Shown: piece by piece, positions 8,959 to 38,441 of the stretch
Position numbering within the stretch: position 1 is the first letter of the stretch
Layout of the letters: the number at the start of each line of letters is the position of its first letter
Source of the DNA: a virus
Taxonomy: Duplodnaviria; Caudoviricetes
DNA: 38,481 bases
Strand: one strand, 5' to 3'
IMG/VR virus record: IMGVR_UViG_3300010222_000009
Location: 1-38,481 of that record
Notes under the pieces: generated by a model
Seen by the model: the letters and a program-made list of their open reading frames with translations, nothing else
The model's database searches: none
What the model was told of the DNA's origin: nothing
Position numbers and translations under genes: made by a program

Positions 8959-8977
8959 CCGAGGCTCACCGCTTGCG

Positions 8978-9728: not shown

Positions 9729-9731
9729 AAA

Positions 9732-10649: not shown

Positions 10650-10893
10650 GGAGTTCGATTCGATGGATATCGAACTCGTTGAGGAGGCTTACAACCATCT
10701 CACGGAGCATTCCCCAGCGAACGCCTCCGCCGCCGCCTCCGACCTCTCGGAAATCATCCATCGGTACGGGGAGGATGACGTTCGGCCCGCCGGGTACTCC
10801 CGCGTTGCCGATGCTGTTGATGCGCTCAAGGAGAGCGAGGTCAAGAGAGCGGAGGAGATACTCAACTCGGTCATCCGGGAGGTAACCACATGA
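10642..10893 (+). CDS. Hypothetical protein
   Basis: MTKEFDS..., overlaps both neighbours, SD-like GAGGTG upstream. Confidence 0.7.
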   Translation: MTKEFDSMDIELVEEAYNHLTEHSPANASAAASDLSEIIHRYGEDDVRPAGYSRVADAVDALKESEVKRAEEILNSVIREVTT

Positions 10894-11489: not shown

Positions 11490-11814
11490 TAAGGTTCGCC
11501 TCCCCAGCGGCGAGGTCGTTGAGCGGTCGGAGTTAGAGGAGGGAGAGGAATGTACCCGATGCGGCGGGTTCGTTCCGCTCGTTGAGAAAGACGGAACCCT
11601 CAACCGGGATGACCCCCGGATATTCCGGTTCGAGCATGAGGGGATGGCGCTCAACGATGATACAAGCCGCCGGGTACTGTCCCCCCATCGGCTCGGGTAT
11701 CTTTGCCCGGATTGTGAACATGAGTTCCGCTCCGAGTTCCTCGGAGACTCATATGAGGGAACGCATCAACATCCGAACCCGAGCGAAATCAAAGAAAGCG
11801 ATACCGATGAGTGA
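11482..11814 (+). CDS. CxxC Zn-finger protein
   Basis: CTRC and CPDC pairs; overlaps neighbours. Confidence 0.75.
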   Translation: MTDKVRLPSGEVVERSELEEGEECTRCGGFVPLVEKDGTLNRDDPRIFRFEHEGMALNDDTSRRVLSPHRLGYLCPDCEHEFRSEFLGDSYEGTHQHPNPSEIKESDTDE

Positions 11815-13150
11815 ACAACGATACACATACGCAACGATCGGCATCAACGACCAACGAGAGGAGCCGGTCATCGTAACTGGCAAACGAAATGTGTCGTTCG
11901 AGATTGGCGGCGAGGAGTTCGACCGAACGGCAACGCTCCGGCTCCCGGAGCGGATGACCTCCTCGGAGTTCAACCAATGGAAATCGGAATCGGGGGTTGA
12001 CCTCATTGATATCTATTTCCATTGCATCAAGCAAACGCCTCGGAAACCGGAACCGGCTCCCGAGGATGCTGGCGGCGAGGTCGGAGAGGAGGAGCAATCC
12101 GAACTCGTTACCGATGGCGGCTCCGACCAACAACCTGACCTCTCCGCGTTGGAGGAGGGGAACGAGGTTCGAGTATTCTATCGGTCAACCCGCTCGGGGA
12201 ACGAGGTCAAGAGAGAGGGAACCGTCTCCGAGGTCATCCCCTCGGAGGAGAACCGTATCGTTCGGGTTCATACTGAGGAACGAGAGCCGCTTAAACACAT
12301 ATTTCTCTGCATGACCGAGGCGGAGGATAACAGCGGAAAGGAGCGGGTATTCGCTTTCTCCCAAACGGCGGAGCCGGATTCCCTCGGATGGGAGGAGCGC
12401 CATGACCTCGCCCGCCCGGAACTCGGGGAGGTTTATACCCTCCGGTTCGAGGTATCCCGAAACTCATACCTCGGGCCGGTTGACCGCATCGTTAGAACCG
12501 ACCGGGCAACCCCCATCATGATGACCGATGGCGGCGAGGAGGTTTGCCCGTCATGCTGCGAGGAGGGGGAGCGCCCCCCCGGCCTCGGAGAGAATCTCCG
12601 GGCATGCATGAACCTCGAATGCCGGGTTAACGAGTTCGAGGTCAATCGAACGGCAACCGATGGCGGCTCCTCGATGCCTAAGATGGCGCTCGAACATCTC
12701 AAGGAACTCGATGCAACGGATGACAAAATCGGGGAATGGCTCTCCGAAAAGGTCGGGGAACCCATCGGCGGGATGACCGACCTCTATGCCTCCGAGCATT
12801 CAATCCCGGATGCGATGAACGAGGTCGAACTCGGGGAGGGATTCTCCCTGAAAGAGCCGGCATACATCGAACTCCTAACGTTGCTCGATCACGGTCGGGA
12901 GGCGGCGGCATCCGACCCCCCGACTCTCGGAGTTCGCAACCGGCTCCTCATGCAACTCATCTTAGCCAACCCCGAGGCTTACGCTCGCATCCGTAAGGAA
13001 ATGGAGGAGCGGGCAAAGGAGGCTCATGAGGAGATGCAACAGCGAATGAATCAAGAGCGGGAACGCCAGCGGATGACCGAGCGAGCCGCCGACCTCGATG
13101 GCGATGCCGTTGATATCGCGCTCGATGATGAGGAGGATGCCGATGAGTGA
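11807..13150 (+). CDS. Second multi-module protein with three TDGG linkers
   Basis: TDGG at 12110, 12524, 12656; CPSC..CMNLEC module; C-terminal coiled coil. Confidence 0.85.
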   Translation: MSEQRYTYATIGINDQREEPVIVTGKRNVSFEIGGEEFDRTATLRLPERMTSSEFNQWKSESGVDLIDIYFHCIKQTPRKPEPAPEDAGGEVGEEEQSELVTDGGSDQQPDLSALEEGNEVRVFYRSTRSGNEVKREGTVSEVIPSEENRIVRVHTEEREPLKHIFLCMTEAEDNSGKERVFAFSQTAEPDSLGWEERHDLARPELGEVYTLRFEVSRNSYLGPVDRIVRTDRATPIMMTDGGEEVCPSCCEEGERPPGLGENLRACMNLECRVNEFEVNRTATDGGSSMPKMALEHLKELDATDDKIGEWLSEKVGEPIGGMTDLYASEHSIPDAMNEVELGEGFSLKEPAYIELLTLLDHGREAAASDPPTLGVRNRLLMQLILANPEAYARIRKEMEERAKEAHEEMQQRMNQERERQRMTERAADLDGDAVDIALDDEEDADE

Positions 13151-13484
13151 GGATTACGTAACGTTTCCCATTGAGGAGTTTCGCCTCCTCGTTGAACTTG
13201 CTGGAGTTTCGAGGAACCCCCGAACCGGGCCGAGAGCGATTGCCCCGTTCATCGGAGGCTCCGCTCGGGCAATGGCGGCGAGGCGAGCGCATGACCAAGC
13301 GAAAAACGTTCTCCGGGAGGAGGGGGCCGAACCGAGGCATACCCCCGGAATCAATCGGGAGCCAATCGAGGATTGGGTTTGGGAGCGAAAGGGCTTGTTT
13401 GTTGGCTCGCAGTATGAATCCCTTGACGCAATCGTTGATGAAATCATTGCGGCCATTGAGGAGGCGAACGATGGGGGAGCATAA
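13143..13484 (+). CDS. Hypothetical protein
   Basis: MSEDYVTF..., overlapping start, ends NDGGA. Confidence 0.7.
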   Translation: MSEDYVTFPIEEFRLLVELAGVSRNPRTGPRAIAPFIGGSARAMAARRAHDQAKNVLREEGAEPRHTPGINREPIEDWVWERKGLFVGSQYESLDAIVDEIIAAIEEANDGGA

Positions 13485-13734
13485 AATCGAGTTCGATGCT
13501 GGGGAGGTCATCCGGCCCGAGTTCTCCCCGGAGAACGACCTCGTTGCCATCTATGTCTCCGATGAGGGGCTTGAGTCGCTCCGGGAGGCGATTTGCCCCG
13601 ATCAATCCCTGGGTTCGAGCGGAGATGAGAGCCTCGCCGCCCCCGAGATTGGCGGCGAACTCCTTGATGATGGATTGGTTGACCTTGGGATGGTCCGGGT
13701 CCGGTATGAGGTCCGGGTCCCCGAGGAACTATAA
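13471..13734 (+). CDS. Hypothetical protein, last of early operon
   Basis: MGEHKIEF... acidic 87 aa; converges on adhesin gene. Confidence 0.7.
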   Translation: MGEHKIEFDAGEVIRPEFSPENDLVAIYVSDEGLESLREAICPDQSLGSSGDESLAAPEIGGELLDDGLVDLGMVRVRYEVRVPEEL

Positions 13735-13739
13735 GCTCG

Positions 13740-15614
13740 TTACAGGGGGATTGTGTTCCCCGTTATCCCAATTCGGTTAGACTTGCAATGGCCGGTATTG
13801 TACCCAACGACCTCCGCGTTCACACCGTTATTGTCTGTTTCGCCCTCCCAAATGAGAGAGCCATCGGATTCCTTGAACGCTTTGAGGTTCCCGTTATCCT
13901 CCCCGACGTATATGTTACCGTCAACATGAGCCGGGGCGGATGCTGGATATGCAAAGCCGGGGCTACTATTTTCCCAATTTTTCAACCCATCCGCCCGGGC
14001 AATTGAGTAAAGACTCCCATCGGCGCTAGGGATGTATACATATCTATCATAAACCGTGGGGTCGGCGTAAGTCCCGCCGCTCCCGAATGAGAAATCCTTT
14101 GAACCGTCATCCTTGTTCAATTTCACAAGCGTTGTTCCGATCGTTCCGGCAAAAACGGCGGAGCCGGTCACCGCCGGGAAAACCCCTTGTATCGATGAGC
14201 CCGAGAGTGACGTTTGCCAATTGACCGACCCACCGGATGCCGACATACGGGTTACATCGGCTTTTTCCTCCCGAACGACATACAACGAACCGTCATCGTA
14301 TACCGGCGTTTTCGGCTTGCCCGTAAGCTCCTTTTTCCAATTCACATCGCCGTTTGCGGGGTCTAATGCATACACAAAGCCATCATGCGAGCCGACATAT
14401 ACATCCGAGTCCAAGGGCATCGGCGGGGCTTGGATGTTGCCCCCTGTGTCCTTTGTCCATTTGATAGAGCCATCGCTCTCATCAATGGCATACACCCGGC
14501 CCGATTGCGCTCCGGCATACAGCACCCCATCCCGTAACGCAACCCCGGAGTCACAAGCGAAATCGGCGGCGGAACTCCAAAAAACCGAGCCATCGGCTTT
14601 ATCGAGGGCGGTAACTCCCGCCTCTGCCGAATCCCTGTCGGGAACATAGAAATTATCGGAGTCTACGGCCCCGGCGTTTTGGCCCATGTTGGAGATGCCT
14701 GTTTTCCATATCCGGGACCCATCGGAGTCATTGAGTGAGTAGTGTACCCCGCTGGTTTGGCTCACAAACACATCGCCGGTCCCGATCGGCTCTTGCACGG
14801 TTATCGTTGCCGTATCGCTATCATCCGGCGATTTGACCGTTGCCGTATAGTCTCCGGCTGCCTCATCGGAGTCGGTATCCCATTGGAGGTAAATGACCGC
14901 CCTATCCTCCCCTTGTATATAGAGGTCGGGATACCTATCCTCCTCGGTCCCATCGATTTCGAGCCAAACGTCCTTTTGGTCTTCCGCCAACCCGGTATTT
15001 TCTACTGTAACGGTTGCCTCCGCCGTATCTCCTTGGTTGACCGGGGAGTTGGTATCGTCAATATTCACCTCATACGTTGCCGTTTGGCTCCCAACGGTCA
15101 CACTTTCCGTATCGGGGTCATCATCGGAGGATACTTTCGCAGTATAATCTCCCTCATCGCCGCTCGATGTATCCCATAGGAGGGTTGCGTCAAGTGATTC
15201 CCCGGCGTTGAGGGAAATGCCCCTATCCGCATCAACTTGATTGCCATTGATTTCGAGGGTTATGTCTTGGGTCCCGGAGGCGTTGCCGATGTTCTCAACG
15301 GTATAATCAACCTCCAACGTTTCCGTCTCCTCAACCGGGGAATTCGTTGAGATAATCACAATGTCGAAATATGCGGCGTCAACGGCCCCGATGAACGGCT
15401 TTGAATACGCATTGTAGTAATCGGAGCCATCATCGTATTGAGCCGCAACGTGGTACGTATCCGATGCGGAGAGGTTGTTAAAGGAATACTCCCCGTTGGA
15501 GTCGGTCGTTGTGGTCCCGGCGAGGGAGTCTTGCGAATCGTTGATGAGGGTGATTTTGACTCCCTCAACCGGGTCATCGTTGTTATCGGTCACCTTGCCC
15601 CGTATTTCGGCCAT
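13740..15614 (-). CDS. Putative receptor-binding/tail adhesin: Ig-like domain, 2 CARDB-like domains and PQQ-type beta-propeller
   Basis: GKVTD..PVEGVKITL..TTTDSNGEYSF; two TVENxG..W(D)T repeats; repeated G-x-x-x-W propeller blades; last tail gene. Confidence 0.8.
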   Translation of the reverse strand: MAEIRGKVTDNNDDPVEGVKITLINDSQDSLAGTTTTDSNGEYSFNNLSASDTYHVAAQYDDGSDYYNAYSKPFIGAVDAAYFDIVIISTNSPVEETETLEVDYTVENIGNASGTQDITLEINGNQVDADRGISLNAGESLDATLLWDTSSGDEGDYTAKVSSDDDPDTESVTVGSQTATYEVNIDDTNSPVNQGDTAEATVTVENTGLAEDQKDVWLEIDGTEEDRYPDLYIQGEDRAVIYLQWDTDSDEAAGDYTATVKSPDDSDTATITVQEPIGTGDVFVSQTSGVHYSLNDSDGSRIWKTGISNMGQNAGAVDSDNFYVPDRDSAEAGVTALDKADGSVFWSSAADFACDSGVALRDGVLYAGAQSGRVYAIDESDGSIKWTKDTGGNIQAPPMPLDSDVYVGSHDGFVYALDPANGDVNWKKELTGKPKTPVYDDGSLYVVREEKADVTRMSASGGSVNWQTSLSGSSIQGVFPAVTGSAVFAGTIGTTLVKLNKDDGSKDFSFGSGGTYADPTVYDRYVYIPSADGSLYSIARADGLKNWENSSPGFAYPASAPAHVDGNIYVGEDNGNLKAFKESDGSLIWEGETDNNGVNAEVVGYNTGHCKSNRIGITGNTIPL

Positions 15615-15616
15615 TG

Positions 15617-15970
15617 TTATTGATTCACCTTGGTTGTGGTTAGCTCATAATCAAGCTCGAAATCGTTTTCCTTGTTGATTTCCGCATGCGTTATCCGGAT
15701 GGCGAGCCCGGACGTTGAGGAGCGGAGAACGACCTCCCGGAGCGTTTCCCCGTTAGCCTCGCTCAAGCCGATCGTTGCCTCATGCAACGCTTGCCCATCG
15801 CCATCGGTTTGATTGGAGTAACCGCTCCCCTCCGCTTTCGAGATGACCTCGTTGCCGATGCTCGTATCCGTCTCGCTCTCATCGTCCCCATCGGACCCCA
15901 TCGCAATCTCATCAACGAAACTCAAAAAGTCATCTCGGAGTTGATTCCTTACGTTGTTGACGTATACCAT
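15617..15970 (-). CDS. Tail tip/baseplate protein
   Basis: EIAMGSDG..SEANGETLREV pattern; position between hub and adhesin. Confidence 0.6.
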   Translation of the reverse strand: MVYVNNVRNQLRDDFLSFVDEIAMGSDGDDESETDTSIGNEVISKAEGSGYSNQTDGDGQALHEATIGLSEANGETLREVVLRSSTSGLAIRITHAEINKENDFELDYELTTTKVNQ

Positions 15971-15974
15971 TGTG

Positions 15975-17288
15975 TTACCCCCCGCTCGATTTATCGACGA
16001 TTACCTCCGAGTCCCCTTGAACATCCGCCGATTGGAGTTCAAAGTCAACCTCAACCCCACCGGGCGGGGTGTAATCCGTCATTGTGAAATCTACTTGTTG
16101 GCCGTTGGGGGGCGTATAGGGCTCCGCCGCATCGAAATTCCGTTTGGTCACCTTGAGAGTCCATGCGAGGTCAAGCGGATCGGTGAAATCGGCAACCTCA
16201 TCGGCGGCGGCGGCGGAGTCTTGCCCCCGAGCATCGAGGCGGGCAATCTCATCCGATACCTTAACGAGCGTATCGAGAACGCCCTCCTCGTTCTCCGCCA
16301 AGCGGATGTTAGTTGTGTCCTCTTGCCATCGATGCTCGATTTGAGCAACCCGGAACTCCGAGTTTACGTTCCGGTCGGGATACTCAAAGCGGAGGATATC
16401 TCCCGGGGAATACCCGAATTTCTCCCATGTCTCAACGTCATACAAATCGATGATGCCCCGCCGCCGGAGGAGGTCCCTGGCTTTCCGTTTCGCCTGTTCC
16501 TTGCTCGATATCTGCGGGTAGTATTTCGATATCTCGATAACAACGGGGTCATCGGTATCGAGTTTATCCCGGAGGTCATCTTGCGCTTGTTGTTGGGATA
16601 CCTTGACCGCATCCCGGTTATTATCCTCCGCTTTTCCGTAATAGAGGATAAGCTCGAAAATCGCTTGTTTGCCGTTGCTCCGCTCTTGAGCGGTGAAATA
16701 CCTCCCATCGGTTAGGTTGCTCGGAGCCGATGCGTTCCCGGTCGGTTGCATGAAAAACTCATTATCGAGGTTGGCTCCCCAATTCCGGGTATCCGCAACG
16801 TTCGAGCAAAACGTCAAGGCGTCATCGAGTTTTGCCCCCTCGAAAACATGGGAGATGGTCGGGTCTTTGTTGAGGTTGACGTTGGCCCCGCCCGCCCAAT
16901 CAACCGGGGTTAGCGAGGTAACCAAATCCTCAAGGATATACGAGACGGTTTGAGAGTCATACCCCCGATTGACCGTTCTCTCCCGGAGAAACCCATCGAA
17001 CGAGAGGATATCAACCGTTGTTGTATCCCTATCGCCCTCCGGTTGCCCGGCAACGTATCCGGCGAAATTTCGGGAATAGGAGGAGTCGGCGGTCGTTTTT
17101 ACCGAGAGTTCGACCTTAGTGCCATACTCAAACGTCTCATCGAGGTTGCCATCGGGGTCATCGAGCCATAGTTTGCTCTCGTTGGCAAAGCGGTTGAATG
17201 CCCGCTTTACGTATACGTCTTGCAACCGGGATTTATCGAGAGAGTTCCCGAGCGAGGGCCCGTAATCAACTCTCCAATCAACGGACAT
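15975..17288 (-). CDS. Baseplate hub/Tal-like tail protein
   Basis: 437 aa after Dit position; FAGYV, PGDILRF..FRVAQIEHRW C-terminal hub pattern. Confidence 0.7.
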   Translation of the reverse strand: MSVDWRVDYGPSLGNSLDKSRLQDVYVKRAFNRFANESKLWLDDPDGNLDETFEYGTKVELSVKTTADSSYSRNFAGYVAGQPEGDRDTTTVDILSFDGFLRERTVNRGYDSQTVSYILEDLVTSLTPVDWAGGANVNLNKDPTISHVFEGAKLDDALTFCSNVADTRNWGANLDNEFFMQPTGNASAPSNLTDGRYFTAQERSNGKQAIFELILYYGKAEDNNRDAVKVSQQQAQDDLRDKLDTDDPVVIEISKYYPQISSKEQAKRKARDLLRRRGIIDLYDVETWEKFGYSPGDILRFEYPDRNVNSEFRVAQIEHRWQEDTTNIRLAENEEGVLDTLVKVSDEIARLDARGQDSAAAADEVADFTDPLDLAWTLKVTKRNFDAAEPYTPPNGQQVDFTMTDYTPPGGVEVDFELQSADVQGDSEVIVDKSSGG

Positions 17289-17776
17289 TATCTCTCAACC
17301 CCCGGCTTGAACTTGAGCATGTATTCAAACCTCGATACCCCGGCGTTGCTCGGGGGCCGGAATTGGTCAATGTTGACCACCGGCTTAATCCCGTTCTCCC
17401 AATCGATGCCCGATTGCTCGGTTGCCGTATACTCATCATCGCCCTCGTAAAACTCGAACGGCCCGCCCTCCGCAAACATGTAATACTCGATGCGGTTGAC
17501 TTGCATCCTTGGGGTCACCGGAGAGGTCCCAAATGTAGATTCAAGGGCGTCCTTATGCGGCTTGGGTACGTTCCTCGAATCCATAAATATCCCCTGAACG
17601 GTGACCTCATGCTGTATAATGCGGAGGTCCCTAACGATTTCCGTTCTCTGTCTCGGGAGCGGTTGTCCCTTGAGGTCGTTATCGAGAACGGGTCGGACCT
17701 CGAAATTCGGGGCGAAATACGCAACCACCGTGTCGCTCCCGACCTCCTCTAACCGGATTTCGGTATGATCGGACAT
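17288..17776 (-). CDS. Distal tail (Dit)-like protein
   Basis: 162 aa immediately downstream of tape measure; synteny only. Confidence 0.55.
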   Translation of the reverse strand: MSDHTEIRLEEVGSDTVVAYFAPNFEVRPVLDNDLKGQPLPRQRTEIVRDLRIIQHEVTVQGIFMDSRNVPKPHKDALESTFGTSPVTPRMQVNRIEYYMFAEGGPFEFYEGDDEYTATEQSGIDWENGIKPVVNIDQFRPPSNAGVSRFEYMLKFKPGVER

Positions 17777-17778
17777 TG

Positions 17779-19257
17779 TTAGATGTTACTCCTCGAATCG
17801 AATGCGCTCCCTTGCTCTTGGGTTACGTTACGTTGGTCAACCTCAACGGTCCCATCGGCCCGTTGCCGGATGGCATCCCGCTCGAAATTGATTTGTACGG
17901 TCGGGGAGCCGCCTCCGCCGCCGGTCCCGCTCGGGGTTGCTTGCATCGCATTCCCGACCTCGCCGGCCAACCCGGAGAGGGTCCGGCGGAATTGTTGCCG
18001 CCGTTGTCGGGCCCCAGATGCGAACTCCTCAAGCAAGTCGGAGCCCCAACGCCTCGCCTCTCGGTCATTGGCAACCCGGTCGAACGAGATTGCGCTCGAA
18101 ATTATATCCTTGACCCCCCCGACCTTATCCTTGACTTTATCCTTTGCGCTCTCGATGCCATTGCTGAACTTGATCATGAGGTCCTTTCCCCAATTGACGG
18201 GGTTGAGGCTCTCGAAAACGCCCCGGATTTTGCCCCCAACGAAACTTAGCGGCGAGGTAATGATGCCGACCGCCTCCGACCGAATCCAACTCCCGATATC
18301 CTCGAACATCTCGGGGAACATCGAGCCGCCGATGAGCATCTCGTAAATGTTCCCGGCCCAACTCCGGAATACCTCAATAACGTATCCCAAGGCATCCCGG
18401 ATGAGCCCCGGGACCGTCTCGGTAATGAATGAGGCGATGTTGCCGAACGTGTTTTTAACGGAGTTCCATAACGTAGCAATTACCTCTTTCGCCCCCTCAA
18501 TGGCCCCGGAAAAGCCATTCTCAAGGAACCCGATGATGGCCCCCCCGAGAACGGCGAGGAGCGGGAATATCCCGGTGAGCGTTAGGAGCGTAACGATGAA
18601 ATCCGCCAAGGGCCCCCCGATGATGTTGCGGATGCCCTCCCCGAGTCCCTTGACCATATCGAGAACTCCGGTTACCTTGAGAACCCAAACCCCGAGGAGC
18701 CCGAGGATAGCGCCAACGGCGGCGGCGAAAGCGAGGGAGCCGGAGATGAACCCCCAAATGGCTCCGAGGGCCTTGCTCCCGAGCGTTGCAACGAACGTCC
18801 CCGAGATGATGGTTTCGAGTCCGGCGAGGAGAACCGCAAGCCCCCCCAATACCCCGCCGATGCCGATGATGGCGGAGGTCGTTTTACGTATTGGGTCCGG
18901 GAGGTCCCGGTATTTATCGGCGGCATCGAGGGCGAGGTTCCCGGCCCCCTCCAAAGCGGGGGCCAAATCCTCCCCGATTTGCATTGCGAGGAGCGAGAAC
19001 CCGAGCCGAACGGTTGAGAGCTCGGCGGAGAGGGTCGGGGAATTCGAGATGATGGCTCCCATCGCCGCCGCCGTTGCCGCTCCGATGCCGATGAGAGCGG
19101 CCCGATGGCGTTGCATCCATCTCGATATTGTTCCCGATTCTTGACGGGCCGTTTTCGCCGTTTCCTTGATTGAGGAACGAACTCCCTCATCGGCTTTTTG
19201 AGCGGCTTTCGCTCCTCGGGTTGCATACTTGATTGTTACGTCGGAGACGGTTGCCAT
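17779..19257 (-). CDS. Tape measure protein (short, 492 aa)
   Basis: Ala/Gly/Ile-rich helical protein with hydrophobic stretches after chaperone genes. Confidence 0.85.
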   Translation of the reverse strand: MATVSDVTIKYATRGAKAAQKADEGVRSSIKETAKTARQESGTISRWMQRHRAALIGIGAATAAAMGAIISNSPTLSAELSTVRLGFSLLAMQIGEDLAPALEGAGNLALDAADKYRDLPDPIRKTTSAIIGIGGVLGGLAVLLAGLETIISGTFVATLGSKALGAIWGFISGSLAFAAAVGAILGLLGVWVLKVTGVLDMVKGLGEGIRNIIGGPLADFIVTLLTLTGIFPLLAVLGGAIIGFLENGFSGAIEGAKEVIATLWNSVKNTFGNIASFITETVPGLIRDALGYVIEVFRSWAGNIYEMLIGGSMFPEMFEDIGSWIRSEAVGIITSPLSFVGGKIRGVFESLNPVNWGKDLMIKFSNGIESAKDKVKDKVGGVKDIISSAISFDRVANDREARRWGSDLLEEFASGARQRRQQFRRTLSGLAGEVGNAMQATPSGTGGGGGSPTVQINFERDAIRQRADGTVEVDQRNVTQEQGSAFDSRSNI

Positions 19258-19264
19258 CGGTTAG

Positions 19265-19501
19265 TTACCTCGCTGGCCGTTGGGCTTGTTGAGCCTCTTG
19301 TTCGGCTTTCTTACTCTCCTTTGCTCGCTTCTGTTGGATTCCCTCAACGATGGCGAGATGGGCTTGATACTCGGGAGCGGGGAGTTCTCGGGGGTCGAAC
19401 GGCATCCCGTACTCTTGAAAGAGTTTGGAGTCATCCATGACCCCTTTCTCGAACGGCGTTTCCGGAATAACGCTCTCCCCTTTCCCATATCTCAAAAACC
19501 C
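19265..19501 (-). CDS. Tail assembly chaperone -1 frameshift extension (gpT-like part)
   Basis: Slippery G GGT TTT (19501-19495) just before the chaperone stop; -1 frame reads FLRYGKGESVIPETPF...QRPAR up to the TMP start. Confidence 0.8.
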   Translation of the reverse strand, partial: GFLRYGKGESVIPETPFEKGVMDDSKLFQEYGMPFDPRELPAPEYQAHLAIVEGIQQKRAKESKKAEQEAQQAQRPAR

Positions 19502-19953
19502 TCCCGAACCTCCTCCGGCATCTCGGAGAACGAATCGATTGCATCCGCCAGCGGCTCCTTGATATGGTCGGGCATGGCCTTTCGATGCGCTTTCTTGTTC
19601 TCGAATCCATCGGGGCCAGCAACAACGCCATGCTCGATGAGTTTGTTCTTGAGAGCGCCGGAATCGGTCGTTACCTCCTCTCGGTTCCGGGAGGTATCGA
19701 TGTTGACCGCCGCTTGCTCCGCCTCCCGCCGCTCCTCCTCGGAGAGAATCCGATATCGGAATGTGATCTCCCCGACCGTTTCCCCGTTCTTGTTCCGAAC
19801 GGGCAACGTAATCGATTTGTGGGTTGACTGTTGCTCCTCCCAATGCCCAACCGCTTGTTGGAACGTAAGTTCCTCATCGCCAGCATCCTCGTTCTCCGCT
19901 CGGTTCTCCTCGGTCGTTGGCTCCTCGTTTGGAGCCTCGGTATCGCTTTCCAT
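19492..19953 (-). CDS. Tail assembly chaperone (gpG-like)
   Basis: 153 aa between tail tube and TMP, ends in slippery heptamer. Confidence 0.8.
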   Translation of the reverse strand: MESDTEAPNEEPTTEENRAENEDAGDEELTFQQAVGHWEEQQSTHKSITLPVRNKNGETVGEITFRYRILSEEERREAEQAAVNIDTSRNREEVTTDSGALKNKLIEHGVVAGPDGFENKKAHRKAMPDHIKEPLADAIDSFSEMPEEVREGF

Positions 19954-19999
19954 TGTTGAGCTCCCTCATTCGGGAAATCCGCTAACGTTGGTCGTTTGC

Positions 20000-20992
20000 C
20001 TATGCGGGTTGGTGGATTTCGATTTCCATCTCTCGGGGCATCAAGCCGATATCCGGCTCAAGCTTCCCCTCGCCGGGAACCGGAGAGGCCGCCGCATCGA
20101 TGGTTGTTCCCTTGAGGCGGATGTAAAGCGCATCCGTAAGGTCGGCCCGAGCCGCCGTTGATTCCGGGTTCTTGTTGAAAACGAACTCGAAATCCATCGG
20201 CTCGCCATCGTTGTAAGCCTCCTCATACCATACGTAATCGGTTTGCGTGATTCCGAGCGTATGGTCATGCTTTTCCTCCGCCGTTTCCTCCGAGATGCTG
20301 TAAGCCTCCCGGCCCCGGCCATGATGGTTTGCCTCAAGCCCATTATCGAGTGAGAAATCAACCGAAGTCGGGGTTTTGATGGGGCCGAGTTGAGTTCCGT
20401 CCGATGTTCTCGATACCGTAACATCCTCCAACATCCAAAAGCGGTATGGAGATTCTTGAGGAATCGAGAGGCTCGGAGCGGCAGCGGGGGAGCCGCTCTC
20501 CGAGGTCGTTGGGTCAAGGCCAGCGGCCATGACGTTGAACGTCGTTGAGAGCGGTTCGCCTTGAGAGGCGCTCATCGAGAGGCTCGCCTTACATCCGGTG
20601 TAATAAGCCTCAAGGTTGCCATCTTGCCAGTGGCCGACCGTCATCGTTGGGAGCCTATCCGCCTCGTTGAAAACGACCTCATCGTAATCGCCGCTTCCCG
20701 GAGATTGGGTTCCGTTATCCGTTCGGCTGCCGAGACCCACCTCGATTGGCGGAGTTGCGTCAACGAGTTGAACGGGAACATCGAACTCAAGCTCCTTTGG
20801 GTCGGGGGAGTTGACGTAAACGCCTCGGGATTTCCCGCCGGTTGCCATCGGAGTTTGCGGGTTCGGGTTCGGAGGGTCGGCATCCTCCCGAATCAACCCG
20901 AAATAGTTGCTGGGATCGCTCGCTTTCGAGTATGCCGTTCCCTCAATGCCAAACGTAAGAACGCCACCGGAGGCGAGGAGATACCTAACCAT
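20000..20992 (-). CDS. Major tail tube protein
   Basis: 330 aa beta-rich; YTGCKASLSMS..GEPL, DFSLDNGLE motifs; synteny. Confidence 0.8.
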   Translation of the reverse strand: MVRYLLASGGVLTFGIEGTAYSKASDPSNYFGLIREDADPPNPNPQTPMATGGKSRGVYVNSPDPKELEFDVPVQLVDATPPIEVGLGSRTDNGTQSPGSGDYDEVVFNEADRLPTMTVGHWQDGNLEAYYTGCKASLSMSASQGEPLSTTFNVMAAGLDPTTSESGSPAAAPSLSIPQESPYRFWMLEDVTVSRTSDGTQLGPIKTPTSVDFSLDNGLEANHHGRGREAYSISEETAEEKHDHTLGITQTDYVWYEEAYNDGEPMDFEFVFNKNPESTAARADLTDALYIRLKGTTIDAAASPVPGEGKLEPDIGLMPREMEIEIHQPA

Positions 20993-28687: not shown

Positions 28688-31399
28688 CTACTTAGCGGCG
28701 GCTTTCTCCCATTGATACCATGTAGCTGTTGAGATGCTGAGATGCTCGCAGGCTTTGTTAACGGAGCCGCGGGATTCCTCAACGGATTCGAGGAGGCCGC
28801 CGATTCCGACCCCCGGCTGTCCGTGTAACTTGAGAACCTCTCTCATCCGGTCGGAATCTTTCGGAACCGGCCATGCTCGAACCCCAGCGAGAGCGTTGAG
28901 GCTCCGAACGTCACTGGGCATATCCTCCTCAAGAACCGGCTCTTGAACGCATCGGCAATTAAACGGTTGGTCATCCCCGACCTTGAACGCCTCTCGGGGG
29001 TAATCGCTGGGTTGGTCGGAGTCTGAGACGGATGGAACAATGAACGAATCCTCTTTCGAAACAACCTCGCCATCCATGACCGCATGCCAATCTCGGGTTC
29101 GGGAGTCATCGGTTGCGTTCCAACCTTTGCCAGCAACAAGGTCGGAAGATTCGGCCAACGCTTGACTCCCCGCCGATTGGCTCATTCGCGTTTCGGTTCG
29201 GGCAACGAGGCGGGCATGGTTCGGGATGTTCGTATCGAGAACCTCCCGGAGTTCGGCGGTTGCCTCGGTGACATTGCCCCCATCCTCCGCAACGTTGAGC
29301 AACGTTCTCCGAACCGTCTCCTTGACGGTATCGCCAACGGTGACCATCCGAGCCGCCGCCTCTTGTTCCATCCGTTCGTAAGCGAACGTATCCTCAACAT
29401 CGAACGAGATTTCAACAGCAACCTCCTCCTCATCTTGTTTTTGCGAGAACCGCTTTTCCGCCTCCTCCTCAAGTTTCCCAGCATGATATTCGGCGGCGAT
29501 TTCCATCGCCTCCCGGTTGCGTTGAACGATGATGCTGGCGAGCGAGGAGCCGATGGCCGAACCGATATCCTCAAGGTCGTTCTCGAAATTCGGCATCGTT
29601 CCGAAATCTGTCGGCGGTTCATCCTCGGGGAAATGCTCCTCCGCCAGCGAGAGGAGGTCATCCTCGAACGAATCAATACCCGCCTCAACGTCATCGGCGG
29701 TATCATCAATATGATTGGCCAGCGGCGGGAATTGGAACTCGAAATCCTCGTTGCGGAGCGAATCATCCCGGAGGAGCATCTCCTTGTAATCGAGGCTCTC
29801 CTCCTCGTTCTCCATGGCTCCGCATATCGCCTCCGCCTCCTCCTCGGTCAAGTCAGGGTTGTTCTCAAGGAGCGTATCAACGCATTCATCGAAATCCTCG
29901 AACGGGCCGACCGGCTTACCCTCCGCTCGGAGTATGTCGGCCCGGTTCGGATTTCCCGAATCATCCCCAGCGGAGCGAGAGCCGGAGTAAGCGGAGAGCA
30001 ACCCGCCTCCCGGAGCCGGGGATGGCGGGTTCTCAACATCGGCCCAATTCTCTAAGGCCCAACCGGGATTGTTTCGGGCAACCGAGCGCATGAGTTCGAG
30101 GGGCATATCCCCCCAATCGAGCGGCTCCTCCCCTCTCTCTTGACGGATTTCGTTGACCGTTGCTGTTCCGCTCTCTAAATCCTCTTGTTGCCGCTGGCGT
30201 TCTCGCTCTTTCATCGCCGGGTTATCGATTTGCCATGCAAATTCAAGTTCCCCGTCAACCCGATGATACGGCTCCATGAAAGCGAGAACATGCCGGTTGA
30301 GGTCAGCGGCCATCCGATCAAGAACCGGCTTTGTTGTGGTTCGGAAAACGTTGGCCGCTTGTTCTTTCATCGTTGCCCGATTGATGTTCTCGATATCTCC
30401 GACTTCGCCTTGATTCAACCCGAAAACCATCCAAACGAGTTGATGATACCACTTTTGCGATGCCATGAACTCCAGTTCATCGGGGGTTGGCCGGAACGGT
30501 ATCCATTCGATTTGGGAGCCATCGCCGCCGATTATCGGGAGAACATGCTCTTGACCCTTGACCTCATCTCGCCAATATTGACGAAAGTTCTCAATTTCAT
30601 CTTGATTCGCCTCGATGACATTAACAACGCCATCGGGAACCTCGTTCTTAGCGAAATATGAGAGGTTCGAGGTATCTTGATTGAGGATGATTTCAGCAAT
30701 CCGCTTTGCCTGTTGAACTTGACCGAACCCGTAATGCCGCCATGGAGCCGGGTTCGTTTCCGTCCAAAGGATTTGCTCTCGGGAGAATCCGATGGGTTCG
30801 CCTCGCCGGGAAAGATACGGAGATTGCCCGCCGAACTCCTCCGCCATATCATGCAGGGATTTCGTTGGGTCGAACGGTTGGAACGCCCCCGAGAATTGGA
30901 ATTGCCAATAAGCCGCATCCGGCGGCTCGGGGAGCCGGTCATGATTATCAATGGATTTCGTAAATACGGCCCCATCCCTCGGATACAACTCATCAAGGAA
31001 CCCCCGTTCATCGGGTACTTTCTCGATGACCCCGGAATCAATCGAGACGATATCATGAACCCATTGCTTAGTGAGATGGTCGAACGGTTGCCCGTTGCTG
31101 TTGTAATTCCCCCGGAGGAACTCCTCGACTCCCTCCGCCGCTCGGGTATGCTCAACAGAGGGGTCATCAACCGTTGGCCGGATGACCCAATCGGTCGTTG
31201 AGACTTGCGTTTTGATTGTACCCAGCGGGAGGGAGATGGGATGCGTCTTTTCGAGCATCCGAACAACTCCGAGATCATCCCGGCGGGGAACACCTTTGTC
31301 CGGTTGAAAAAAGAAAGTTTGGCGCTCGCCTCTCGGTTCGGTTCCTTGTGCGTTTATCATCCCGAGTTCTCGCCGCTTACCGGGAGCAAATACGGGCAT
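28688..31399 (-). CDS. Portal protein fused to MuF (SPP1 gp7-like) domain and C-terminal HTH-like segment
   Basis: YGFGQVQ..YFAKNEVPDG..VFGL portal motifs; ARLVARTE..W.AT.D.RTR.WH..DG..FNCRC MuF motif; one 903-aa frame. Confidence 0.88.
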   Translation of the reverse strand: MPVFAPGKRRELGMINAQGTEPRGERQTFFFQPDKGVPRRDDLGVVRMLEKTHPISLPLGTIKTQVSTTDWVIRPTVDDPSVEHTRAAEGVEEFLRGNYNSNGQPFDHLTKQWVHDIVSIDSGVIEKVPDERGFLDELYPRDGAVFTKSIDNHDRLPEPPDAAYWQFQFSGAFQPFDPTKSLHDMAEEFGGQSPYLSRRGEPIGFSREQILWTETNPAPWRHYGFGQVQQAKRIAEIILNQDTSNLSYFAKNEVPDGVVNVIEANQDEIENFRQYWRDEVKGQEHVLPIIGGDGSQIEWIPFRPTPDELEFMASQKWYHQLVWMVFGLNQGEVGDIENINRATMKEQAANVFRTTTKPVLDRMAADLNRHVLAFMEPYHRVDGELEFAWQIDNPAMKERERQRQQEDLESGTATVNEIRQERGEEPLDWGDMPLELMRSVARNNPGWALENWADVENPPSPAPGGGLLSAYSGSRSAGDDSGNPNRADILRAEGKPVGPFEDFDECVDTLLENNPDLTEEEAEAICGAMENEEESLDYKEMLLRDDSLRNEDFEFQFPPLANHIDDTADDVEAGIDSFEDDLLSLAEEHFPEDEPPTDFGTMPNFENDLEDIGSAIGSSLASIIVQRNREAMEIAAEYHAGKLEEEAEKRFSQKQDEEEVAVEISFDVEDTFAYERMEQEAAARMVTVGDTVKETVRRTLLNVAEDGGNVTEATAELREVLDTNIPNHARLVARTETRMSQSAGSQALAESSDLVAGKGWNATDDSRTRDWHAVMDGEVVSKEDSFIVPSVSDSDQPSDYPREAFKVGDDQPFNCRCVQEPVLEEDMPSDVRSLNALAGVRAWPVPKDSDRMREVLKLHGQPGVGIGGLLESVEESRGSVNKACEHLSISTATWYQWEKAAAK

Positions 31400-33944: not shown

Positions 33945-34296
33945 CGGCCCTCCATTCCAAACGGGCAACGATAAACGCTCCGAGGAGTACCATGATGGTA
34001 TCGAGAACGGTATCCTCCGCCGCATAATCCTCGGAGGTCTTACCCCCGAACGGGAACACCCCGAACTCATACTCCGCCAACTCCCAAAGGGCCGATGCCC
34101 CGAGCGCAACGGAGAGATCAAACGGGACCGTTGAATCAGGCCGGGATGCGAAACCGCCAACAGCAACCCCGCCGATGAAATGGGCAACGTTGTCGAACCA
34201 AAAGTATCGGCGGTATGACTTGGCCCGGAAATGCAAGCCGGCGAGGATTGCCCCGGCAATGGCCCCGATGAGGTTTGAGCGGGTAAGGAGGTTCAT
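33937..34296 (-). CDS. Small multi-pass membrane protein, VanZ/DUF2238-like
   Basis: WFDNVAHF..LWELAE..DTVLD motifs within hydrophobic helices. Confidence 0.65.
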   Translation of the reverse strand: MNLLTRSNLIGAIAGAILAGLHFRAKSYRRYFWFDNVAHFIGGVAVGGFASRPDSTVPFDLSVALGASALWELAEYEFGVFPFGGKTSEDYAAEDTVLDTIMVLLGAFIVARLEWRADE

Positions 34297-34724
34297 TCGT
34301 TACCGTCTCCCCCACCGAAATCAACCATTGCCTCGTAAACGAATTGCCCAATCTTCATGACCGGAGCCGCTCCGAACCATTTCAGGGTTGCCAAGACCCA
34401 AACGATGATGGCCCCGTATTGGAGGAACGTTAAGAGCGGCGAGAACGTCTCCCCCGCATCGAGCGTTCCCCCGATTACGGCATCAAAGGAGAGTTGCCCC
34501 GTGAGAATGAGGAACGTTGCGGAGACGGCCCCGAGGAGCAAGAGGATGATCGGGGATGCCATGATAAGGAACGCAAGGAAATCATCCCAATACCCGGAGC
34601 GGTCTTTGAGTTCAACATCCTCCGGCGGCTCGGGGGAGTCGGAGTCGGCATCGGTATGCGGTTGAGCGGTCGGTTTCTCAACGGAGTCGGTTTCGTTGGT
34701 ATCAGAACTCATGATTGCCCTCAT
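34293..34724 (-). CDS. Membrane protein with two TM helices
   Basis: FLAFLIMASPIILLLLGAVSATFLILTG and LLTFLQYGAIIVWVLATLKWFG. Confidence 0.75.
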   Translation of the reverse strand: MRAIMSSDTNETDSVEKPTAQPHTDADSDSPEPPEDVELKDRSGYWDDFLAFLIMASPIILLLLGAVSATFLILTGQLSFDAVIGGTLDAGETFSPLLTFLQYGAIIVWVLATLKWFGAAPVMKIGQFVYEAMVDFGGGDGNE

Positions 34725-34738
34725 TTGTGAGTTTGGAC

Positions 34739-34885
34739 TTACTCATCGGAATCCTCCTCCCCGAGAACTCTCTCAACGTGATTAGCGCAATCCTCGTATA
34801 CGTTCGCCGCCGTTCGATTGCGCTCCTCTCGGTTCTTTTCCGCCAACCGCCGGAAATCCTCAACGACCTCGCTAACTTTCGCCAT
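34739..34885 (-). CDS. Small hypothetical protein
   Basis: MAKVSEVVEDFRR..., GGAGGT upstream. Confidence 0.55.
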   Translation of the reverse strand: MAKVSEVVEDFRRLAEKNREERNRTAANVYEDCANHVERVLGEEDSDE

Positions 34886-35015
34886 CGTTCCGACCTCCAT
34901 GGCGTTCCGGCCCCAGCGGATGACCCCGCGCCTTGATTTCCTCCCAACGCTCAATTACCCTTCCCGCATCGAACTCTCCGGGGGATGGGTCACCGTACCC
35001 GGCCATATCAACCAT
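34872..35015 (-). CDS. Small hypothetical protein
   Basis: MVDMAGYGD..., overlaps TerS end and next gene. Confidence 0.45.
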   Translation of the reverse strand: MVDMAGYGDPSPGEFDAGRVIERWEEIKARGHPLGPERHGGRNDGES

Positions 35016-35673
35016 CGTTTCCCTCCTCATTCTCCGCCTCACTTGATTTCCATTCGACCGAGATGGGAGCGCCTCCCTCCTCGCCCGCGTGCGTATGTGA
35101 CATGTCGCCATCGATGTTGACCGTTCTCCCCTCGGTCAACTCCTCGAACGTCTTTACCAACTTACGGAGTTCCTCAACCCGATGGTTGAACGCCGAATAA
35201 TTGGCATCGAGGAGGTCGGCCAACGATGCGATTTCCTCTTGACCTAAGCCGGTTGCGCTCGCCTCCTCGATAATCTCGTTGTACGCATCCCAAAACGAGC
35301 GGTCATCCGCATCCTCCTCAATGTTCCGAACCGCTCGCCGGAGCCGCATGAACTCATAGTTTATCATCTCTTGAAGGTTCTCGATGTTGCCCCGAGCCTC
35401 GATTGCCTCCATTTCCTCTCGGTCATCCTCCGAGAGATAATCGGAGAACAATCCATGTTTGAACTGCGGGGAATCCTCCCCCCGAGGAGAATTGCCGCCA
35501 TGGAGCCAACATCTGCCCCGACCTTGATGCTCCGTTCGATGGCCCGCTTGTTGCTGGCAATACCCCTCAAATATTCCGTTGGAGGATTTCCGAGCGTTGC
35601 AATATTCATCCGGCTCCCGTTGGGGAACCTCCTCGGTTGGCTTGCCAATAAGCTTCTCCTCGGGTTGTGTCAT
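35008..35673 (-). CDS. Terminase small subunit
   Basis: CNA..C..GRCWLHGG..KHGLFS motif followed by helical region; first gene of late operon. Confidence 0.75.
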   Translation of the reverse strand: MTQPEEKLIGKPTEEVPQREPDEYCNARKSSNGIFEGYCQQQAGHRTEHQGRGRCWLHGGNSPRGEDSPQFKHGLFSDYLSEDDREEMEAIEARGNIENLQEMINYEFMRLRRAVRNIEEDADDRSFWDAYNEIIEEASATGLGQEEIASLADLLDANYSAFNHRVEELRKLVKTFEELTEGRTVNIDGDMSHTHAGEEGGAPISVEWKSSEAENEEGNDG

Positions 35674-35809
35674 GAGGTTGTACTCCGATCCCCCGGCCGT
35701 GTGGGGTTGCTCTTGTACGGAGTACAACGTTGAAACGCAAAATGGTTAGCAGAATTAACAGTTAACGGCGGATGTGGCTGGTAAGCCGATCAACGCAAGT
35801 ATCGAAAGG

Positions 35810-35873
35810 GATGCGGAGCCGGGCGTGAATCGTTCGAGGGATTGGCATGGTCGAACGAACCCGGCTCCGCATC
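35810..35873 (-). ncRNA. Candidate hairpin antisense sRNA targeting the start of the 6649 gene
   Basis: 14-bp plus 8-bp perfect stems; 35831-35849 identical to 6633-6651; CGAA-TTTAAATA promoter-like sequence on minus strand 26 nt upstream. Confidence 0.65.
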
Positions 35874-36250
35874 GGATTTTCGGATGCGCCGTATTTAAAT
35901 TCGCTGGCGTTGTCGGACCGCCGCCTCTATTACACGCGCATGAGCAAGAAACGTCGCTATCTAAAGATTCTGCGGATTAGGTTGCAAGTCACCGCCGCTA
36001 GTGGAATTAAGAACCATGATAGATTGTCGCAAGTCGGACCACTTGCGACAGTAAGGAAACCTCTCCGATAACCCTCTGTGTTGCGGTTAGTCGGCTTTAT
36101 TTCACCGAGCCGGTGCAAGTCATAGAACTCCCTATTTATGAAATCTGTAGATGGAGACGTTTCTGCTACACGCGCGTACAATAGAGATAGGAATAACTAA
36201 CAGGGGAGGCTCCGGATGACCTCCGGTGGGGGCCAAATCACGCTATCAAT

Positions 36251-36475
36251 TTAGTTGTCGTTTTCTCCAAGGAGCTCACTCAGTTCCTCCTCATCGAGCG
36301 ACTCAAGCATTTTTTGCACTTGAGGATCGTTGTCGAATTCGGATTCGAGGACCTCCCGAATAAGCTCACTCATGTTTTTTCCGGAGACGGCCGCTTTAAG
36401 ACGAATTTTCCGCTTGAGGTCGGTCGGAACCTTGGCTCCGATGGGCTCTGTTGTGCTCATTTCGTCTGAGTTCAC
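36251..36475 (-). CDS. Ribbon-helix-helix transcription regulator
   Basis: IGAKVPTDLKRKIRLKAAVSGKNMSELIREVL; true start possibly MSTTEP. Confidence 0.85.
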   Translation of the reverse strand: MNSDEMSTTEPIGAKVPTDLKRKIRLKAAVSGKNMSELIREVLESEFDNDPQVQKMLESLDEEELSELLGENDN

Positions 36476-36711
36476 CGTAGTAACAGTTAACGGGTTAACG
36501 GTTATAAGAGTGTGGGTCTATCCCGTATTATCGGAATGCCGTCATTTAGTTTCACTTTCACCGTACACGCGGTTTTTTGAAATGGGTATTTTTGGTAATC
36601 AACCGGAGTCAAGCAAGCAAATTTGAAAATTGGGTATCAATGTGCGTTAACCGTATTACCGTTAACTATTTACTAATCGCACCCTTCACAGTTGACTCGT
36701 GGAAGTAGCCT

Positions 36712-36930
36712 ATGGATAACGGAAATAAGCGGAATGAAAAGGTAACGGTCGGGACGAAAGTTAGCGAGCGGAAAAAGAAAAAGTTGGAGCAGGAGGCCAT
36801 CGAGCGGTCGGAACCCGGCAACCGTGTTACTGTGGGCCAAATCCTTCGGGAGCTAATCGATGAGCATGTTGACCTCGATGGATTCGAACCGCCATCCGAG
36901 GATGATGGCTCGGCGGAAATGGAGGCATGA
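36712..36930 (+). CDS. Ribbon-helix-helix regulator, divergent
   Basis: VTVGTKVSERKKKKLEQEA..TVGQILRELIDEH. Confidence 0.8.
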   Translation: MDNGNKRNEKVTVGTKVSERKKKKLEQEAIERSEPGNRVTVGQILRELIDEHVDLDGFEPPSEDDGSAEMEA

Positions 36931-37122: not shown

Positions 37123-38385
37123 CTACTGCTCACCCAAGAGAAAGGCCCGGAGTTCGGGGTTGGCTTGAACCCGGTCCCGGAGCCATTCGATATCGTTGGC
37201 CGTTTCCCCCTCTGCTTGGAGCGCAGAGTCAAAGAGCCGATCATCTTGCTCTCGGACTTGCTCCGCCGCCTCGGGGTCAAGAGCCTGTCCGCAATGGACG
37301 CATACCGGCTCGTTGCGGGGGGTGTCAAGGCCGCATCTGGGACATTCGAGCGGAGCCGTTGGGTCGGTTTCCTCAACGGATACGTCGGCCCCGTGCGCCC
37401 GGGCAATTTCCCGGTCGGTTTCCTCGGAAAACACAGCAATATACCTCGCCGCAATGTCGCTCCCACGTTTCCATCCGTGATGATTTTCGAGATGGACTTG
37501 CGAGACGTTTTGAGCGGCAAGGTACGACGCGCTGGATTTGCGCATGCGCGTAAATGTCGCCTTACTCGGGGGGTTAATGTCGGCTTTCCGGGCCGCGGAG
37601 CGGAGGATTTTCAGTTTCATTTGATAACTGATATCCTCCCCGTTGTTGGTGTTGCACCAAAGCGGAGCATCGGGGTCATCCCGGCGAGGATGGTTCGAGA
37701 GCCATTGTCGGACATGAGGGACGGACGGGATGAGGACAACGGAGCGTTGTCCGGTTTTCCCGTCGAATGTGACGCTCATCCCGTGAGCATGGTCACCAAC
37801 GTCCCCGACAGTCAACTCTCGGATTTCACCGCTCCGAGCCCCGGAATCCCATGCCATAGTGATGAGTGCCTTGTCTCGGAGGAGGTTGCATGCATCAATC
37901 ATCGGGATAATGTGCTCCTCCCATCGGTACATGTCGTTGGGGTCGGGCATCGGCTCGTAGTTATTGGAGGTCGTTGCCGAGATTTGGGAGATGCTGTCCG
38001 GGAGATTCCTGGTATCGTCCGGATCACCGGACGAAAGGTGAGCGGCCAAACGTCGGATGGCAACCCTGTAGTCTCGGTTTGTCTCCTCGGAGTCGAACGT
38101 TCGGTGTATCCAGCGAACGAAATCTTTCGCAACCTCCTCATCATCAAGAGCGTCAACGAGTCGGTGATCGGGGAGTTCATCGGGGTCGTATCGCTCGGAG
38201 TCTCCGGCGAGGATGGTGCAGTGACGGAGGAGCTTGAGATGCCGGTGATTGCTGTAGTCGGACGCTCGGAACCGGAGTTCATCGGAGAACTCGATGAGCG
38301 CCTCCCGGTCGGCGGGAGCCAGTTTCTCGGAGTTCTCGATGCGCTCTCGGAGCGTGTCGATGTGTTCTGTAGTATTGCGCTCCAT
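37123..38385 (-). CDS. int: Tyrosine integrase, SNJ2-like, with C-terminal Zn ribbon
   Basis: RDKALI..DSGARSGE (R), GKTG (K), RMRKS, HHGW, RY catalytic Tyr; CPRC..CVHC; adjacent to att; start taken at MERNTT. Confidence 0.92.
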   Translation of the reverse strand: MERNTTEHIDTLRERIENSEKLAPADREALIEFSDELRFRASDYSNHRHLKLLRHCTILAGDSERYDPDELPDHRLVDALDDEEVAKDFVRWIHRTFDSEETNRDYRVAIRRLAAHLSSGDPDDTRNLPDSISQISATTSNNYEPMPDPNDMYRWEEHIIPMIDACNLLRDKALITMAWDSGARSGEIRELTVGDVGDHAHGMSVTFDGKTGQRSVVLIPSVPHVRQWLSNHPRRDDPDAPLWCNTNNGEDISYQMKLKILRSAARKADINPPSKATFTRMRKSSASYLAAQNVSQVHLENHHGWKRGSDIAARYIAVFSEETDREIARAHGADVSVEETDPTAPLECPRCGLDTPRNEPVCVHCGQALDPEAAEQVREQDDRLFDSALQAEGETANDIEWLRDRVQANPELRAFLLGEQ

Positions 38386-38426
38386 ATACCAGCGTATTAC
38401 TGGCGGCATGTAAACATGCGGTTTAC

Positions 38427-38441
38427 ATCCCTCCACCGGCT
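38427..38441 (+). repeat. att core, right copy
   Basis: ATCCCTCCACCGGCT identical to 40-54. Confidence 0.93.

Follow-up and report, generated by a model that had tools for sequence, protein, structure and literature searches.

A conserved hairpin upstream of terS in a haloarchaeal provirus probably encodes a trans-acting antisense RNA against a predicted early operon

The DNA analyzed here is an integrated haloarchaeal tailed virus (provirus) of 38,481 nt, and "the window" denotes that whole stretch. Its minus strand carries the head and tail genes, which begin with terS (35673) and proceed towards lower coordinates, and its plus strand carries a helicase gene, a PAPS-reductase-like gene, a primase gene and the TDGG operon. 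The nearest cultured viruses reach only 33–36% identity in TerL. The tRNA end at the left side was the sole Rfam match in the window at gathering score, two unrelated matches with E values of 4–5 lying outside the hairpin described below; it is 98% identical to one genome in the family of Halococcus thailandensis, the best of 21, a likeness that serves as a pointer to the host only. The features that frame the locus are as follows.

1–54: tRNA 3' end on the attL side (Rfam match; anticodon CGT read from the sequence)
35008–35673, minus strand: terS, terminase small subunit, first gene of the late operon (PHROG 9231/509), 130 nt downstream of the hairpin
35755–35767: GTTAAC-type box between the hairpin and terS, a 13-mer also found in the RHH-gene promoter; candidate repressor operator and putative separate late promoter
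36251–36460, minus strand: ribbon-helix-helix (RHH) gene, candidate repressor (PF01402 above cut-off)
37126–38436: tyrosine integrase gene, preceding the repeated 15-nt tRNA core
38427–38441: 15-nt tRNA core repeat on the attR side, behind the integrase

One near relative could be fetched, the 37.6-kb record IMGVR_UViG_3300046052_000026 (G001), which is 82% identical to the window in TerL, 81% in the capsid protein and 56% in TerS. It closes on a 55-nt terminal overlap, with an estimated completeness of only 41%. The PAPS-reductase-family gene of the window (3033–4268) sits between helicase and primase, and G001 retains only a 91-aa matching piece.

A long hairpin preceded by a promoter-like box lies upstream of terS and has the following parts.

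35810–35823 / 35860–35873: outer stem, 14 bp; in a minus-strand RNA, 35860–35873 is the 5' arm and 35810–35823 the 3' arm
35824–35859, minus strand: 36-nt insert (inner stem and loop) that carries the antisense sequence
35830–35837 / 35851–35858: inner stem, 8 bp, within the insert
35838–35850: loop, 13 nt, within the insert
35831–35849, minus strand: perfect 19-nt antisense block
35805–35873, minus strand: predicted hairpin small RNA of ~68 nt, both ends predicted
35892–35903, minus strand: BRE/TATA-like box CGAA-TTTAAATA, putative promoter of the predicted RNA

A preliminary description of this DNA had reported the 14-bp hairpin, its 8-bp inner stem and its 13-nt loop, and all of these coordinates hold. 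Folding z scores are −7.9 for the minus and −5.2 for the plus strand, with 0 of 200 shuffles doing as well on either, and the 14-bp stem is the longest among the 10 perfect stems of at least 10 bp in the window. The box was likewise found where it had been described: its first T stands 26 nt before the stem base, and TT.AAATA occurs nowhere else in the window. In the mapped promoters of halovirus HF2, the TATA motif begins at −26, according to the passage on them in PMC8707807. The spacing between box and stem, 26 nt in the window and 27 nt in G001, is thus the spacing mapped for HF2, and box and spacing are kept in both genomes.

The 5' end of the predicted RNA would lie near 35873–35870, and the 3' end is uncertain, with just three U after the stem. 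A terminator scan found none at the hairpin, where the U run after the stem is three in the window and four in G001; given so weak a terminator, the predicted RNA may run on into the late operon. Rfam models gave no match to the hairpin, either at gathering score or at E values up to 10. The DNA contig of X1 passes through the locus unbroken. In the contigs of the RNA runs X2 and X3 (4–6 million letters), neither the hairpin nor positions 1–20000 were covered, which is uninformative either way, as a 68-nt RNA is easily lost and the contigs were filtered. The RHH gene was covered in each of these runs by one 187-nt contig of depth 3, the only covered part of the 22.7 kb compared; this is a weak hint of expression, since both runs give the same contig and are possibly one data set.

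The antisense block points to the start of a gene 29 kb away, around which the following features were placed.

6586–6636, plus strand: early promoter TATA (TTTATAT, 6586) and predicted leader; the start site is predicted
6617–6622 / 6631–6636, plus strand: leader 5' hairpin, its 3' arm overlapping the target
6633–6651, plus strand: target site, comprising the 3' half of the leader, an SD-like GAGG and the ATG of the TDGG gene
6649–8958, plus strand: TDGG gene, 769 aa, first of the non-structural operon, with five TDGG motifs and CxxC modules
6667–6679, plus strand: second possible pairing block for the 5' arm of the RNA (12 of 13 positions), codons 7–11; partner 35857–35869, used in the cofold model

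As the preliminary description had it, positions 35831–35849 are identical to 6633–6651, and the last bases of this target are the ATG (6649) with which the 769-aa TDGG gene begins, a start used by all five aligned homologues. We infer the early status of the operon from its position and its non-structural content. In both viruses the target leader is predicted to begin ∼35–40 nt before the ATG with a small hairpin (9 bp in G001, in the same relation to the target), the 3' arm of this hairpin reaching into the 5' half of the target and the GGGAUUGGC part being more open in the model. No counterpart of the second pairing block was seen in G001.

The TDGG protein belongs to no Pfam or PHROG family. 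Together with the product of 11582–13150 in the window and those of 29337–31022 and 34157–35389 in G001, it is one of several modular proteins whose domains, unrelated to one another, are connected through (M/V/A)TDGG linkers; these are in most cases encoded by ACC/ACG GAT GGC GG. The homologues have their N-terminal 107 aa in common and their later modules shuffled; the linkers are possible recombination joints or processing sites. Neither a family nor a paper was found for these proteins. A separate 10-bp stem with a 30-nt loop and identical arms lies inside the homologous 522-aa and 410-aa genes (window 11975–12024; G001 34322–34371), and its conservation may merely reflect that of the coding sequence.

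We then asked how unusual the match is. The preliminary description had put the chance expectation of 19-mer repeats at ∼0.003, a figure that proved too low. The longest exact repeat, counted over both strands, reached at least 19 nt in 1 of 40 base shuffles, in 9 of 40 order-3 and in 10 of 40 order-5 Markov genomes. The window also holds an unrelated 18-mer repeat, and 4 of the 138 hairpins in 20 halovirus and provirus sequences showed a loop match of at least 18 nt. The 19-mer alone is not rare; the non-random part is its context. Shuffled inserts matched any predicted start region by at least 14 nt in 7 of 20,000 trials for the window. The likeness exceeds the 19 nt, with 27 of the 36 insert positions matching in register, and no site in the genome makes a better duplex partner for the insert than the TDGG leader (−43.0 kcal/mol among 3823 windows, mean −16.6, S.D. 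4.9), the next unrelated site reaching −34.3. Thirty-six-nucleotide windows that match a predicted start region by 18 nt occur at one locus in G001, the hairpin insert, and at two in the window, the other being a coding repeat. A survey of 491 hairpins from 22 halovirus and provirus sequences gave 11 with a loop match of 13 nt to a predicted start; of these, only the ones in the window and G001 had a stem of at least 12 bp. No second target of the insert was found in the window. Two more loop matches, of 19 and 23 nt, were seen in G003, inside coding sequence and not at starts; one apparently non-coding hairpin there (36114–36187; L200) has 19 nt in its loop that also occur within a gene at a distance of 1 kb.

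The most telling comparison is with G001, in which the element and its possible targets are laid out as follows.

20802–20861 of G001: syntenic hairpin upstream of terS (fold z −5.1)
24002 of G001: gene for a zinc-finger-like, 101-aa CxxC protein; second match, 15 nt, in codons 4–8, on the sense strand just after the ATG
13719 of G001: DUF7344 gene; third match, 14 nt, in codons 6–11, on the sense strand just after the ATG

Co-conservation of loop and target, a check proposed in the preliminary description, was followed in this one relative, where position, insert length, promoter spacing and identity were all kept and three concerted changes were seen. The G001 stem, of 12 bp, is the longest of the six perfect stems in that genome. 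The stem core GAGCCGGG/CCCGGCTC is common to both viruses, the outer pairs differ yet still pair, and the enclosed insert is exactly 36 nt in each. The G001 box, TTCAAATA, precedes its stem by the 27 nt given above; TT.AAATA occurs twice in G001, and in both genomes the box faces the strand that would give the antisense RNA. The G001 insert matches 18 nt of that virus's own TDGG leader (29318–29335; ATG at 29337). The gene behind it is syntenic and encodes 561 aa, sharing one internal 70-aa module with the window gene; the N-termini are unrelated. Neither the hairpin regions nor the leaders of the two genomes align by blastn.

Relative to the window, G001 shows three changes, each of them present in its hairpin as well as in its target: a C and a G are added, and the GGC core is followed by T. 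Cofolding gained −16.1 and −9.1 kcal/mol for the two cognate pairs and −2.9 and −2.4 for the crossed pairs, energies that apply to 37 °C and standard salt, not molar KCl. These data indicate that complementarity has been maintained by concerted changes in the putative RNA and its target, as judged from one comparison of two genomes and not from many events. G-U wobbles were neutral as to strand (9 versus 7 positions), and the plus-strand and minus-strand folds were −40.1 versus −42.0 kcal/mol in the window and −31.6 versus −30.6 in G001.

The suggestion that the complement of the AUG is exposed in the loop fits one virus of the two. In the window, the 19 matching bases divide into 12 in the loop and 7 in the inner stem. 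The perfect match in G001 ends two bases short of the ATG, which is itself mismatched, and the match continues over TCC and GAAAG of codons 2–4; in the best predicted fold there, some of the seed is paired and a loop of only 6 nt stays open, a fold with a 14-nt loop being 0.3 kcal/mol higher.

The four copies in G001 have a 12-nt core in common. When the G001 insert was shuffled, any 14-mer match arose in ∼1% of trials, and one at a start region in 10 of 20,000. A duplex scan of G001 ranked an unrelated site at 36741 (−42.0 kcal/mol) above the secondary targets (−41.4 and −37.1). The window orthologue of gene 24002 (36% identity) does not carry the site, and no counterpart of the DUF7344 gene was seen at the syntenic place in the window. 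The N-terminus of the 24002 product resembles that of the G001 TDGG protein, and for this reason the 24002 site may be a by-product of module shuffling. The leader of gene 13719 also opens with a predicted 5' hairpin.

Searches for further relatives covered several collections. The viral_contigs collection, searched with TerS, the TDGG protein and the exact 18-mer, returned nothing. TerL as query gave G001, one 5.4-kb metagenome contig that starts 222 nt before terL and so misses the hairpin, and no genome; other close relatives were represented by proteins only, among them TerL proteins of 75–92% identity. A broad TerL alignment comprised 10 genome and 29 viral loci, and a scan of 26 of these (L011–L036) found the stem or seed in none except G001's own, 13 others of 23–42% identity being left out of the scan. 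The stem pattern matched 120 loci in viral_contigs, from 34 of its 64 parts, none like this element or virus. The seed pattern matched 13 of 401 Halobacteria genomes, but no match lay in a comparable hairpin or showed likeness to either virus, and capsid and portal searches hit 5 of 401 and 1 of 21 genomes, all distant. The hairpin region had no blastn match in phages, and seven cultured haloviruses showed no counterpart of the hairpin. A covariance model of the two RNAs, poorly aligned and with 6 pairs, found just both RNAs and the G001 target in 1.07 Mb. In L027, a distant halovirus fragment, a perfect 19-bp stem with a 15-nt loop lies at 3512–3564, ∼770 nt upstream of terL; no target for it was found within the 7.6-kb contig.

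The hairpin neighbors what looks like a DNA-level switch. GTTAAC boxes lie at 6565–6614, 28435, 35755–35767, 36486–36499 and 36646–36666 of the window, which places them in five promoter regions (early, prohead-protease, late, RHH and cro-like); of the 15 copies, 9 lie between genes, and related boxes stand at the early promoter. The motif is absent from the promoter of the hairpin. The boxes seem to be candidate operators of the RHH protein, which would act separately from the RNA. The divergent RHH gene (36251–36460, minus strand) and an RHH-like gene (36712–36930, plus strand) resemble a cI/cro switch, of which G001 retains the plus-strand counterpart (21654) only. In G001 a different 11-mer is common to the late and cro-like promoters, and neither an integrase (PF00589; control positive in 14 of 14) nor an RHH-repressor match was found. 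Just before the terS ATG, an 11-bp hairpin on the minus strand (35677–35728; z −3.0) hides an SD-like GGAG.

We consider the hairpin a real, conserved element, probably a trans-acting antisense RNA. Stated fully, the likely reading is that it is the gene of a ∼68-nt minus-strand, trans-encoded antisense RNA that represses translation of early genes, as the preliminary description had proposed and as the comparison with G001 supports. All the competing readings, even pooled, appear unlikely to us. In the proposed mechanism, the host polymerase would start at the stem base from the TATA at 35899. The loop bases would pair first with the leader where it is unpaired, at GGGAUUGGC(AUG), and pairing would extend by opening the inner stem of the RNA and the 5' hairpin of the leader, giving a duplex of 19 to ∼30 bp that spans the SD-like GAGG, the AUG and the codons that open the gene. 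Initiation would then be blocked, and the host ds/ss RNase known from phiH might cut the ends of the duplex. In Haloferax, SD sequences are of little importance; the block of early translation may consist of steric hindrance at the AUG.

The proposal is at its least certain where timing is concerned. The hairpin promoter has no GTTAAC box, so the RNA would be independent of the repressor and present in the lysogen, where it could serve as a constitutive second lock beside the RHH repressor and silence leaky early transcripts. In infection, the accumulating RNA would shut early translation down, and it would exclude only viruses with the same leader sequence. The preliminary description had offered lysogeny, immunity or late shut-off as the role; confinement to integrated lysogeny is doubtful. 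G001 keeps the hairpin and has more targets while giving no integrase or RHH match, and thus the RNA probably acts in non-integrated growth too, probably in a delayed early shut-off or in the exclusion of like viruses. A farther-reaching version, which we hold to be distinctly unlikely, is a reprogrammable guide cassette: a conserved stem whose fixed 36-nt guide is rewritten with its targets, silencing several early genes at once and defining halovirus immunity groups by nothing but RNA sequence, and which is handled by a protein (an uncharacterized haloarchaeal ds/ss RNase or another RNA-guided factor) rather than working by pairing alone.

Among the alternatives, the hairpin could be the 5' leader, a stabilizer or attenuator, of the late terS message, with antisense action coming from the late transcript or a piece cut from it, so that early shut-off would be coupled to late transcription. 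It lies on the same strand as terS, 130 nt upstream, behind the strongest TATA in the genome and with a weak terminator, and other predicted leaders here also begin with hairpins. However, the second TATA-like/GTTAAC cluster and the 11-bp leader hairpin (35677–35728) between it and terS suggest a separate late promoter, and a stabilizer alone does not account for the covariation of insert and target. We regard this reading as improbable.

In another reading, the hairpin is incidental, and the shared sequence would serve as a DNA operator to which a viral protein binds, both at the early start and a short way downstream of the minus-strand promoter. All copies do lie near starts, the four in G001 share their core, and the virus encodes RHH-type proteins. 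An operator, however, requires neither a conserved 12–14-bp stem nor a fixed 36-nt insert, and the viruses differ by insertions inside the core, in both copies. The copies all have the same orientation relative to the sense strand. The shared site is not palindromic and is copied exactly over 18–19 nt, while separate palindromic GTTAAC boxes mark the promoters; the site therefore does not look like an RHH operator, and we think it quite improbable that DNA binding explains it.

Type I-B spacers are ∼36 nt in size, and 36 nt is also the length of the insert that the conserved stem core encloses in each virus. This invites the view that the RNA guides a protein effector, a host Cascade-like complex or another RNA-guided protein, which would repress either the DNA or the RNA; the partial matches found at several sites also resemble seed-only repression. 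Yet the flanks are inverted, not direct, repeats and match no Rfam CRISPR repeat, the 41 ORFs scanned include no cas, Argonaute or TnpB family, the targets center on start codons and not on TATA boxes, and the fixed length rests on two examples. This makes a protein guide very improbable.

That the element is a neutral relic, a duplicated gene 5' end whose copies stay alike through gene conversion or recent copying, seems to us more improbable again. A lone 19-mer repeat is common under the Markov nulls, and the likeness in the window spans ∼45 nt of gene start, as a duplication would give; against this, G001 has the same layout despite unalignable flanks and a different gene N-terminus, along with the conserved promoter and extra targets, and of the 11 start-matching hairpins only these two have long stems. 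Finally, transcription of the plus strand, yielding a sense-strand leader copy that would act as a decoy and draw off a leader-binding factor of host or virus, is scarcely credible: the plus strand folds nearly as well, but the conserved TATA faces the minus strand and no conserved plus-strand promoter lies upstream.

Returning to the antisense reading, literature searches of open-access PMC and bioRxiv listed no trans-encoded antisense RNA of an archaeal virus, judged by the titles and opening lines of abstracts among the papers returned; the antisense control that we found described for archaeal viruses is the cis-encoded Tant of phiH. If the reading is true, haloviruses use c4-like RNA control of their early program and possibly have RNA-defined immunity groups. 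The two viruses would also offer a natural, short pair of sRNA and leader with a built-in non-cognate control, the G001 pair, for learning how archaeal sRNAs block initiation, whether by covering the SD or the AUG, and which RNase cuts, as well as a possible scaffold for designed gene silencing in Haloferax.

Several known systems bear comparison. The P4 CI and P22 sar RNAs are encoded within or opposite their target operons, and CI acts via transcription termination. Like them, the predicted RNA would be a small phage RNA restraining early or antirepressor genes (for sar, as outlined in PMC12197685). CreA/CreR-type crRNA-like regulators differ in that the flanks here are inverted repeats that match no Rfam CRISPR repeat. 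According to PMC3510493, sRNA162 of Methanosarcina mazei masks a ribosome-binding site in trans, as the RNA proposed here would; it is a cellular RNA that pairs through a single-stranded linker, and it is unrelated in sequence and shape.

The phiH Tant RNA is read from the strand opposite T1, and its duplexes lead to loss of the ribosome-binding site, in the accounts given in PMC4284463, PMC6210493 and PMC8707807; a host RNase trims the T1/Tant hybrids, according to those parts of PMC4284463 and PMC8707807 that treat them. By analogy, the element described here would also belong to a haloarchaeal tailed virus, be antisense to an early transcript, stand beside a DNA-binding repressor and have the first ribosome-binding site removed or blocked. 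Unlike Tant, which is cis-encoded, the hairpin lies at 35.8 kb and its target at 6.6 kb, the two are only partly complementary, and up to three targets are present in G001.

The nearest parallel in form is c4 of P1 and P7. In P1, as summarized in a section of PMC12197685, c4 pairs through its loops near the ribosome-binding site. Its target is the icd-ant antirepressor operon adjoining the RNA gene, whereas here the distance to the target is 29 kb (∼9 kb in the circle) and the target is no recognizable antirepressor. Our element also differs in coming from an archaeal virus and in being one long hairpin with a 36-nt insert, with no match to the Rfam C4 model and no sign of a tRNA-like precursor. 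It resembles c4 as a short, structured phage RNA with loop complementarity near a ribosome-binding site, perfect over 19 and 18 nt, covering GAGG and lying at or near the ATG, and sequence differences between such RNAs could give heteroimmunity.
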